A stretch of DNA of 1,996 nt from Escherichia coli (GTDB lineage Bacteria > Pseudomonadota > Gammaproteobacteria > Enterobacterales > Enterobacteriaceae): NCBI RefSeq assembly GCF_003334405.1, contig NZ_QOWM01000041.1, one strand, 5' to 3'. The number at the start of each line of letters is the position of its first letter. Position 1 is the stretch's first letter. The translations under genes were made by a program, and so were the position numbers. The notes beneath the pieces are model-generated. The model was given only the letters and a program-made list of their open reading frames with translations, ran no database searches and was not told where the DNA came from. Shown in pieces: positions 1-1,376 of the stretch.

Positions 1-810
1 AACCAGATGGACCCGGTGTACACGCCGGCGCGAAAAATCCACCTGTACCACTGCGACCATCGCGGCCTGCCGCTGGCGCTTGTCAGCACGGAAGGGGCAA
101 CAGAATGGTGCGCAGAATACGATGAATGGGGCAACCTGCTGAATGAAGAGAACCCGCATCAGCTGCAGCAGCTTATCCGCCTGCCGGGGCAGCAGTATGA
201 TGAGGAGTCCGGCCTGTATTACAACCGCCACCGCTATTATGACCCGCTGCAGGGGAGGTATATCACTCAGGATCCGATTGGGCTGAAGGGGGGATGGAAT
301 TTTTATCAGTATCCGCTGAATCCGGTTCAGTATATAGATTCAATGGGACTGGCATCAAAATATGGACACTTAAATAATGGCGGATATGGAGCGAGACCCA
401 ACAAACCGCCTACGCCCGATCCAAGTAAATTGCCGGACATAGCGAAACAATTAAGACTGCCATATCCTATTGACCAGGCCAGTAGTGCGCCTAATGTTTT
501 CAAAACATTCTTCAGAGCATTAAGCCCTTACGACTACACACTGTATTGCAGGAAGTGGGTAAAACCAAATCTGACTTGTACGCCACAGGATGATTCCCAG
601 TATCCAGGGATGGATACAAAGACAGCAAGTGATTACCTGCCACAGACAAATTGGCCAACAACTCAATTACCACCAGGATATACTTGTGCAGAACCCTATT
701 TATTCCCAGACATTAATAAACCCGATGGGCCAGCAACAGCAGGGATAGATGATTTGGGTGAAATTTTAGCTAAGATGAAACAGAGAACATCGAGAGGAAT
801 AAGAAAATGA
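1..810 (+). CDS. ybfO: Rhs-family protein, 3' portion only (5'-partial; reading frame is open from base 1, so the ATG at 7 is an internal Met). Contains the end of the RHS repeat-associated core and a 152-aa variable C-terminal (CT) toxin domain of unknown activity; possibly an orphan Rhs core-CT fragment
   Basis: Translation carries the hallmark end-of-core motifs of Rhs proteins: [76 protein letters not shown] is at nt 226-246, DPIGL at 271-285 and the terminal DSMGL at 337-351. Composition switches from GC-rich to AT-rich at about nt 290-350, as expected at an Rhs core/CT junction. Stop TGA at 808-810. The symbol is from memory of the K-12 RhsC-region gene order and was not verified by search. 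Confidence 0.9.
223..351 (+). other. Rhs core/CT boundary: putative aspartyl-protease autoprocessing region ([21 protein letters not shown] ... [10 protein letters not shown]), with predicted release of the CT domain after Leu115 (nt 349-351)
   Basis: Seen in sequence: two D-x-x-G-L motifs 22 residues apart, DPIGL (aa 89-93 of the ORF-track numbering) and DSMGL (aa 111-115). Established knowledge: in Rhs and Tc-toxin RHS cages a PxxxxDPxGL motif marks the C-terminal autoproteolysis site, and the variable toxin domain starts immediately after it. The conserved Pro is replaced by Ser here. Confidence 0.7.
352..810 (+). other. Variable C-terminal (CT) toxin domain of the Rhs protein, 152 aa, Pro-rich, 3 Cys, no motif I can assign to a known toxin family
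   Basis: Sequence downstream of the DSMGL motif is AT-rich and shows none of the core consensus, as expected for a polymorphic-toxin tip. I could not find HNH-type, PD-(D/E)xK-type or deaminase-type motifs by eye. Confidence 0.6.
792..798 (+). promoter_or_regulatory. Shine-Dalgarno (GAGAGGA) for the immunity gene, lying inside the 3' end of the Rhs CT coding sequence; indicates translational coupling
   Basis: Purine-rich GAGG/AGGA core with an 8-nt spacer to ATG 807; start and stop codons overlap. Confidence 0.55.
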
Positions 811-863
811 AAAGAGTTTTGTTCTTTTTGCTGATGATATTTGTTAGTTTTGGTGTTATAGCT
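807..863 (+). other. Signal peptide of the putative immunity protein (aa 1-19, predicted SPase I cleavage after VIA)
   Basis: KR at positions 2-3, then a 13-residue hydrophobic stretch [13 protein letters not shown], then small residues at -3 and -1 (V-I-A). Not a canonical lipobox because Asp sits at -1 relative to Cys21. Confidence 0.6.
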
Positions 864-1376
864 GATTGCGAAATACAAGCTAAAGATCATGATTGTTTTA
901 CTATTTTCGCTAAGGGTACTATTTTTTCCGCGTTTCCTGTCTTAAATAATAAAGCCATGTGGAGATGGTATCAGAATGAGGACATCGGTGAGTATTATTG
1001 GCAAACAGAACTGGGTACATGTAAAAATAATAAATTCACACCAAGCGGGGCGAGACTCTTAATTCGCGTCGGGTCACTACGCCTTAATGAAAATCATGCC
1101 ATCAAAGGAACGTTGCAGGAGTTGATAAATACAGCAGAAAAAACGGCGTTTCTCGGCGATCGGTTTAGAAGTTATATAAGAGCGGGTATCTATCAAAAAA
1201 AGAGCAGTGATCCAGTTCAGTTGTTGGCAGTCCTTGATAATTCAATCATGGTAAAATATTTTAAAGATGAGAAACCAACTTATGCTCGAATGACAGCACA
1301 TCTCCCGAACAAAAATGAGTCTTACGAATGTTTAATAAAGATACAGCATGAACTAATTCGTAGTGAAGAGAAATAA
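807..1376 (+). CDS. ybfC: Putative Rhs immunity protein, 189 aa, with a predicted Sec signal peptide (exported, probably periplasmic)
   Basis: ORF starts at ATG 807 and overlaps the upstream stop by 4 bp (ATGA at 807-810), with a GAGAGGA Shine-Dalgarno 8 nt upstream. This is the classic position of an immunity gene directly 3' of an Rhs CT. N-terminus [19 protein letters not shown]|DC has a basic n-region, hydrophobic core and V-I-A cleavage site; the mature part has 4 Cys. AT-rich like the CT it follows. Stop TAA at 1374-1376. The symbol is from memory of an E. coli K-12 189-aa secreted protein and was not verified. Confidence 0.8.

Follow-up and report, generated by a model that had tools for sequence, protein, structure and literature searches.

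A stranded Rhs tip and its exported partner YbfC in Escherichia coli K-12 as a candidate envelope-directed toxin and immunity pair

The stretch of Escherichia coli DNA analysed here (contig NZ_QOWM01000041.1 of assembly GCF_003334405.1; 1,996 bases, hereafter the window) is 100% identical to the rhsC locus of K-12-type E. coli chromosomes. In J53, a K-12-type strain, the gene order is kdpFAB, ybfA, full-length rhsC, ybfB, an Rhs fragment, ybfC, ybfQ and ISAs1 pseudogenes, and the Rhs fragment (the ybfO orphan) is annotated as an Rhs pseudogene 'missing N-terminus'. The window is the tail of this orphan fragment, followed by ybfC, encoding a protein of 189 amino acids, and by ISAs1 remnants; all of its features described below lie on the plus strand. 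The open reading frame (ORF) of the orphan fragment starts 711 nt 5' of the window, has its last 267 codons inside it and ends at position 810. Both genes are already in the databases, as is the 'secreted' label for YbfC, which together with its homologues is annotated as 'putative secreted protein' or 'periplasmic protein'. Transcripts of rhsC and ybfC have been detected in Shiga toxin-producing E. coli, and the existing literature treats ybfOC as one operon; the literature searched yielded no study on the function of ybfO or ybfC. We propose that the C-terminal tip of ybfO is an uncharacterised periplasm-acting Rhs toxin and YbfC its exported β-sandwich immunity protein, the pair being an undeliverable orphan in K-12, and we consider this reading probable.

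Positions 1-351 of the window encode the C-terminal end of the ybfO Rhs core. The NCBIfam models RHS_core (matched at model positions 1147-1261) and TIGR03696 both stop at residue 115 of the 267 visible, while the Pfam RHS match is confined to residues 11-47 of the visible ORF. Two demarcation motifs are found at the end of the core, DPIGL at nt 271-285 and IDSMGL at nt 334-351; the core thus ends in a demarcation of the PxxxxDPxGL type and the variable tip follows directly after it. The tip, a putative toxin domain, consists of 152 residues plus the stop codon (352-810; residues 116-267 of the visible ORF correspond to nt 352-807). The GC content steps down from 55.8% in the Rhs core to 43.2% in the tip and 36.9% in ybfC, which matches the expectation for an Rhs variable region. 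The ybfC ORF (807-1376) overlaps the stop codon of the tip by 4 nt (ATGA), and a Shine-Dalgarno-like GAGAGGA (792-798) is located inside the tip coding sequence, 8 nt 5' of the ybfC ATG. The tight coupling of the two ORFs, already noticed when the window was read without database searches (hereafter the sequence-only reading), is confirmed by the overlap and by this site.

The tip contains 21 prolines (13.8%), ten of which are among its first 60 residues, a single histidine, and three cysteines at tip positions 66, 76 and 112 (codons 547-549, 577-579 and 685-687). These counts and coordinates agree with the sequence-only reading, which had described a proline-rich tip of 152 residues with three cysteines and had recognised in it no nuclease, deaminase or other motif. 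Our searches for known domains were equally empty: no Pfam match was obtained even at E<=10, either with the single sequence or with 15 family members scanned one by one, no match was found in NCBIfam, PADLOC or PHROGs, and comparison with PDB sequences (single and profile) and with solved folds gave no match either. The outcome of the fold search supports the earlier suggestion that the tip may have an unrecognised toxin fold. An in silico study of this tip in the enterohaemorrhagic E. coli strain EDL933, the rhsC reverse primer of which is the reverse complement of window positions 393-412, detected no convincing domain in either the toxin or the adjacent protein (PMC7216683).

A profile run exhaustively against 1.84 billion representative proteins returned only 28 tip-family representatives. 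In the members with enough upstream sequence the Rhs core demarcation motif precedes the tip, the remainder being short fragments; judged by these alignments, the tip of the window founds a small family of Rhs tips that is as yet uncharacterised. Its distant members are ~31-45% identical. The Pro-rich linker formed by tip residues 1-39 (352-468) is poorly conserved, not alignable among the distant members and predicted to be disordered, and it is followed by the core of the tip (residues 40-152; 469-807), delimited by conservation and predicted structure. Besides the motifs SPYDY(T/S)QYC.KW, DY.P and P.GY.C, the distant members share a helix that begins acidic (A..D) and a basic tail at the C-terminus. 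S58, P59, C66, W69, D94, P107, C112, A130 and D134 are invariant, and D61, Y62, C76 and G109 are nearly so; a conserved histidine was sought in the tip-family alignment and none was found. Three short tip-bearing contigs (L002, L003 and L006; 1.4-2.4 kb) are assigned to Flavobacterium psychrophilum, Candidatus Nanosynbacter and Erysipelotrichia metagenome-assembled genomes. The Flavobacterium and Nanosynbacter contigs match the E. coli tip at 99-100% identity and on this account were set aside as mis-binned rather than taken for genuine hosts; L006 is a 70% partial match.

The core of the tip is modelled as a small β-sheet core, a C-terminal amphipathic helix and a basic tail (RGxRK), with predicted local distance difference test (pLDDT) values below 50 for the linker in both models and of 70-93 for residues 61-120 in the fused model. 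Tse5 offers a precedent for an Rhs tip acting on the membrane from outside the cytoplasm (PMC10684867), and the amphipathic helix and conserved basic tail at the end of the ybfO tip could be taken to suggest a membrane-depolarising pore former like Tse5-CT. However, the hydropathy of the tip reaches a maximum of only 0.14 over 19 residues, with a mean of -0.82, so that no membrane segment is expected; it has neither hydrophobic nor glycine-zipper helices, and YbfC is predicted to be, after cleavage, a soluble β-sandwich (mature maximum 1.03) and not an integral membrane protein. We rejected the pore-former reading for lack of a hydrophobic segment and hold it to be very improbable. A Cys-His peptidase or amidase was likewise rejected, since the tip family has no conserved histidine. 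The hydrophilic character of the tip, its few conserved catalytic-type residues and its soluble partner together argue against both a Tse5-like pore and the Cys-His wall amidases. Our working guess is a soluble, non-pore mechanism directed against the wall or envelope; the tip may be an enzyme of a new kind or may inhibit a wall or envelope process by binding.

YbfC begins with MKR, followed by a hydrophobic core, the sequence V-I-A|D and a cysteine at position 21, that is, with the charged N-terminus, hydrophobic core and small residues at -3 and -1 that are characteristic of a Sec signal. Over 19 residues its hydropathy peaks at 2.24 in the whole protein and at 1.03 in the mature part. Among 21 close homologues position 17 is A, V, S or T, position 19 is Ala and position 20 is variable, which fits cleavage by signal peptidase I after residue 19. 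The predicted signal peptide consequently comprises residues 1-19 (807-863), with the cut between A19 and D20, and leaves a mature protein of 170 residues plus the stop codon (864-1376), the putative cognate immunity protein. The hydrophobic N-terminal stretch is found in 44 of the 45 full-length YbfC members and an N-terminal K or R in 42, down to ~30% identity. The clear Sec-type signal peptide that had been read from the downstream ORF is therefore supported both by its architecture and by its conservation in relatives.

The four cysteines of YbfC (positions 21, 30, 72 and 175) are all in the mature part, as had been counted before. Their distribution in the 45 full-length members is strictly paired for C21 and C72 (both present in 28, both absent in 17, mixed in none), and C30 and C175 are both present in 44. 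This paired keeping and loss points to two disulfides, C21-C72 and C30-C175, and with them to an exported protein that folds in the periplasm; the covariation thus implies two structural disulfides formed in an oxidising compartment. Mature YbfC is predicted by modelling to be a soluble periplasmic β-sandwich. The family counts 72 matches and extends to Comamonas, Delftia and Ralstonia. No relatives were found in Pfam (single sequence and member by member), in NCBIfam or among PDB sequences (single and profile), and PADLOC and PHROGs gave no match. A Foldseek search with the YbfC part of the fused model (residues 183-352) retrieved relatives at E values of 1e-7 to 7e-6, and by this structural comparison the YbfC fold may be more widespread than its sequence family. 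These relatives, which are uncharacterised, are 12-16% identical to YbfC and ~185 amino acids long, and come from Roseiconus and Stieleria (Planctomycetes), Lentisphaera and Halalkalibaculum.

A YbfC-family gene is located directly 3' of the tip at six independent loci (Escherichia, Phytobacter, Delftia, Ralstonia and two others), usually with the 4-nt overlap, and the small downstream gene co-varies with the tip: the identities of tip and partner to those of K-12 fall together (98/92, 68/67, 43/35, 44/35, 45/32 and 42/34%). The adjacency spans Gamma- and Betaproteobacteria and was seen at every locus examined. Such recurrent adjacency combined with parallel divergence is hard to explain without a functional pairing of the two proteins.

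In the genome of the window the gene with this tip is a fragment that lacks the N-terminal delivery region; full-length Rhs proteins bearing the tip are found elsewhere, with 1383-1491 amino acids and scores over the RHS_core cutoff. In Phytobacter ursingii a VgrG (603 bits, TIGR03361) is followed by a 1383-amino acid Rhs carrying the tip (2052 bits against RHS_core, over the curated cutoff), a 194-amino acid YbfC homologue with the ATGA overlap and, after it, more orphans. Delftia has the order VgrG, a 1491-amino acid Rhs with a tip of the same family and a YbfC homologue, and the tip and YbfC are likewise paired in Ralstonia. In E. coli, intact Rhs proteins of 1395-1399 amino acids end in the tip; AR_0015 encodes its copy at rhsB, Ecol_AZ147 and O157:H7 theirs at rhsC. 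While vgrG is directly upstream in Phytobacter and Delftia, it is not so at the E. coli rhsB and rhsC loci; the N-terminus of the full-length E. coli Rhs has DUF6531 and a weak PAAR motif (E 0.066). Ecol_AZ147 (L021 2260-7025) carries the orphan tip and an identical ybfC on its full-length rhsC and has neither ybfB nor the rhsC tip of K-12, and other genomes have at the same locus a 718-amino acid hybrid (L018/L019 5001-7723) composed of a PAAR-like N-terminus, a truncated core and the orphan tip. Comparison of these loci indicates that natural strains show recombination between the main rhsC and the orphan.

The genomes of O157:H7 have an intact 1399-amino acid rhsC product with the tip beside a ybfC that is annotated as frameshifted (L020 5456-6026, L012 9456-10026). 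The frameshift area corresponds to window positions 817-830, in signal-peptide codons 4-8, where K-12 has TTTTGTTCTTTTT and O157 has TTTTG followed by nine T. About 221 genomes are at least 99% identical to the O157 80-mer. Strain H57 matches this 80-mer over 79 bases, which fits a run shorter by one T and a gene that is in frame, and hints at homopolymer slippage in ybfC. The frameshift implies that a cell can do without immunity at least as long as its weapon is silent or the toxin remains caged, and it bears on whether encapsulation by Rhs is by itself sufficient to protect the producer.

The frameshifted ybfC of the O157:H7 lineage, the pseudogene state of the ybfO fragment, the insertion sequence (IS) remnants flanking the cassette and the lack of any functional study found would also suit a cassette that is in K-12 a decaying, functionless relic, in which YbfC is exported but is not an immunity protein and its adjacency to the tip is meaningless. 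The substitution pattern speaks against such decay. The ratio of nonsynonymous to synonymous substitution rates (dN/dS, against E. coli AR_0015 and Phytobacter) is 0.10-0.30 for both ORFs, and by this measure both the tip ORF and ybfC are under purifying selection; ybfC itself, with a ratio of 0.10-0.26, has kept its length and its four cysteines, and the tip/ybfC pair is present in 3,615 of 5,426 complete E. coli genomes. The adjacency extends from Enterobacteriaceae to Delftia and Ralstonia, and the two partners diverge in parallel. We therefore find it improbable that the cassette is such a relic.

The proposal of a periplasmic or envelope site of action comes from the partner: because the dedicated partner of the tip is always exported, unlike the mostly cytoplasmic immunity proteins of polymorphic toxins, the tip itself would act outside the cytoplasm, on the envelope and not on DNA or RNA. 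Exported immunity proteins are routine for the cargo amidases and lipases of type VI secretion systems (T6SS) and uncommon for Rhs tips. In polymorphic toxin systems most immunity proteins stay in the cytoplasm, and those that are secreted go with toxins acting at the surface (PMC3482391). The sequence-only reading had suggested an extracytoplasmic target from the single pair; the linkage of the two genes, the conservation of the signal peptide, the covariation of the cysteines and a tip without known domain now lend this suggestion family-wide computational support.

An exported partner could also serve a toxin that acts in the cytoplasm, provided that YbfC catches the tip in the periplasm, ahead of its passage through the inner membrane, and that the Rhs shell cages the toxin in the producer. 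Rhs shells do enclose toxin domains (PMC10433429), and O157:H7, in tolerating the intact toxin with a frameshifted ybfC, indicates that producers survive without YbfC, which favours this arrangement weakly. The characterised cytoplasm-acting polymorphic toxins, however, have cytoplasmic immunity proteins (PMC3482391), and the tip, with its three conserved cysteines, bears no nuclease, deaminase or ADP-ribosyltransferase signature; nor was any translocation domain or hydrophobic segment seen in it. Cytoplasmic action is accordingly an unlikely explanation of the pair.

If the tip acts in the periplasm, as we propose, the full-length form would work as follows. The Rhs shell would enclose the tip, which would be cut off after the DPxGL...MGL boundary, and the T6SS would fire it, mounted on the VgrG spike, into an adjacent Gram-negative cell. 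It is established for Rhs effectors as a class that the shell encloses the tip, that autoproteolysis at the core boundary frees it and that the T6SS fires the VgrG/PAAR-mounted Rhs (PMC10433429). In the recipient the tip would act in the periplasm or envelope, and, because its three cysteines are conserved, it may fold or become active only after periplasmic oxidation; a precedent is the activation of the periplasm-acting T6SS effectors Ssp2 and Ssp4 by the DsbA of the target cell (PMC5792426). YbfC would be exported by means of its Sec signal peptide, which would be cut off after Ala19, and its β-sandwich, held by the two disulfides, would bind and neutralise the incoming tip in the periplasm. 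In K-12 the toxin half encoded by ybfO would be offensively inert because it has no N-terminal delivery region, with ybfC kept as a standalone immunity gene against relatives armed with the tip; presumably only ybfC can act there, as orphan immunity. To our knowledge K-12 has no T6SS.

By its architecture the pair is an ordinary Rhs tip/immunity cassette in the orphan position, and the one typical feature that it lacks, in the genome of the window alone, is a full-length deliverable Rhs protein. It has relatives among characterised systems and differs from each of them. Dickeya dadantii RhsA/RhsB-RhsI and the E. coli Rhs-CT1/CT3/CT5-CTI pairs have the same DPxGL-ended core, low-GC tip and small downstream gene (PMC6730261, PMC10433429), and their full-length versions adjoin vgrG, as do the Phytobacter and Delftia members of the ybfO-ybfC family; orphan tip/immunity cassettes are found 3' of the main gene, as is ybfO-ybfC. 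Those tips, however, are nucleases or peptidases with recognisable domains and mostly cytoplasmic immunity proteins, whereas the ybfO tip has no such domain and its partner has a signal peptide and probable disulfides. Tse5-Tsi5 of Pseudomonas aeruginosa shares the Rhs-encapsulated tip with a site of action other than the cytoplasm that we propose for the ybfO tip (PMC10684867); Tse5-CT, in contrast, is a hydrophobic pore former, while the ybfO tip is hydrophilic, lacks a membrane segment and is paired with what is predicted to be a soluble exported β-sandwich. In the Tse1/Tsi1-type amidases, Tae/Tai and Ssp2/Ssp4 of Serratia the immunity protein is exported to the compartment of the toxin, as proposed for YbfC (PMC5792426, PMC6833914), and the cysteine content of the ybfO tip is compatible with an oxidative activation as in Ssp2/Ssp4. 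Tse1, Tae and Ssp toxins are nevertheless free-standing, have peptidoglycan-hydrolase folds and use Cys-His catalysis, whereas the ybfO tip is fused to Rhs and has neither a conserved histidine nor a fold match. The orphan modules of Salmonella Typhimurium resemble ybfO-ybfC in that a displaced, recombinable Rhs C-terminal fragment and an immunity gene lie 3' of a full-length rhs. The Salmonella orphan Rhs toxin reportedly acts in the cytoplasm, with a cytoplasmic immunity protein. An exported immunity protein such as YbfC could not serve an orphan toxin-antitoxin role of this Salmonella type.

Several observations weigh against a periplasm-acting toxin countered by YbfC, or narrow what such a pair could do. 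(i) The toxin gene of O157:H7 is intact beside a frameshifted ybfC. (ii) K-12 cannot deliver the toxin, so the present function of the cassette there would be defence only. (iii) The model of the tip is only moderately confident and the fused model carries no interface confidence. (iv) Conserved polar residues are few in the tip and a conserved histidine is absent, so that no catalytic mechanism can be proposed. (v) A lipobox-like motif precedes C21 in 8 of the 45 YbfC members, some of which are possibly lipoproteins. For YbfC of K-12 a lipoprotein was considered and rejected, since its sequence there is I-A-D-C, in which the Asp at -1 does not allow a lipobox, and since C21 is kept or lost together with C72; lipid-anchored or soluble, YbfC homologues are, to judge from their N-termini, destined to end outside the cytoplasm.

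A more specific version of the proposal is that the tip is a new disulfide-activated toxin fold hitting the envelope by a mechanism unseen among T6SS effectors, countered by a new immunoglobulin-like family of exported immunity proteins. We put this forward tentatively, as somewhat less than an even chance. Within it, the few conserved catalytic-type residues leave room for a non-enzymatic binder of a periplasmic or wall-precursor target as one possibility. Were this version true, about two-thirds of E. coli, K-12 and O157:H7 included, would carry an uncharacterised envelope-targeting weapon or shield. What we consider new, from the sequence comparisons, is a toxin family without recognisable domain or fold and an immunity family that appears to be consistently exported and disulfide-bonded. 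A link of YbfC to the compartment of a toxin and family-wide evidence of this kind were not found in the literature searched, and ybfO and ybfC are not listed in the portion searched of the supplement of Zhang et al. 2012.

For ybfO and ybfC, two K-12 genes with no assigned function, the analysis supplies a hypothesis, that of a stranded toxin tip with an exported orphan immunity protein, and it flags a widespread, unstudied toxin family, found on intact Rhs proteins in O157:H7 and other strains and, in Phytobacter and Delftia, beside VgrG. Here sequence alone allows an argument for the compartment in which such a toxin would act. Few of the characterised Rhs tips act on the envelope, and the target of this one could point to a new step at which the Gram-negative envelope is vulnerable.

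Additional arrangements of the cassette were seen in other genomes. In one of them (L011 4001-5976) two YbfC-like genes stand in tandem after an orphan tip of the family (4735-5301 and 5404-5976); each encodes a signal peptide, and the arrangement looks like a duplicated or stacked immunity array; the main Rhs upstream in the same genome has 1643 amino acids and a different, Gly-rich hydrophobic tip. Where the cassette is in the primary position (L012 10297-11353, L013 10269-12406), it is followed by toxin-less orphan immunity genes of other systems; the genes of this poly-immunity tail encode NTF2-fold immunity proteins, DUF6258 and the HEAT-repeat protein YibA.

A promoter and terminator scan of the window gave sites no more numerous than in shuffled sequence. 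Downstream of ybfC the module is bounded by two copies of the 5' end of ISAs1 (H-repeat) at 1459-1616 and 1839-1996, identified by repeat search, NCBIfam and annotation, which form a 158-nt direct repeat (95% identical, 380 nt spacing). The first copy contains ybfQ (1602-1856), a truncated transposase gene that matches positions 1-51 of the 314 of the NCBIfam ISAs1 transposase and ends where the second copy starts.

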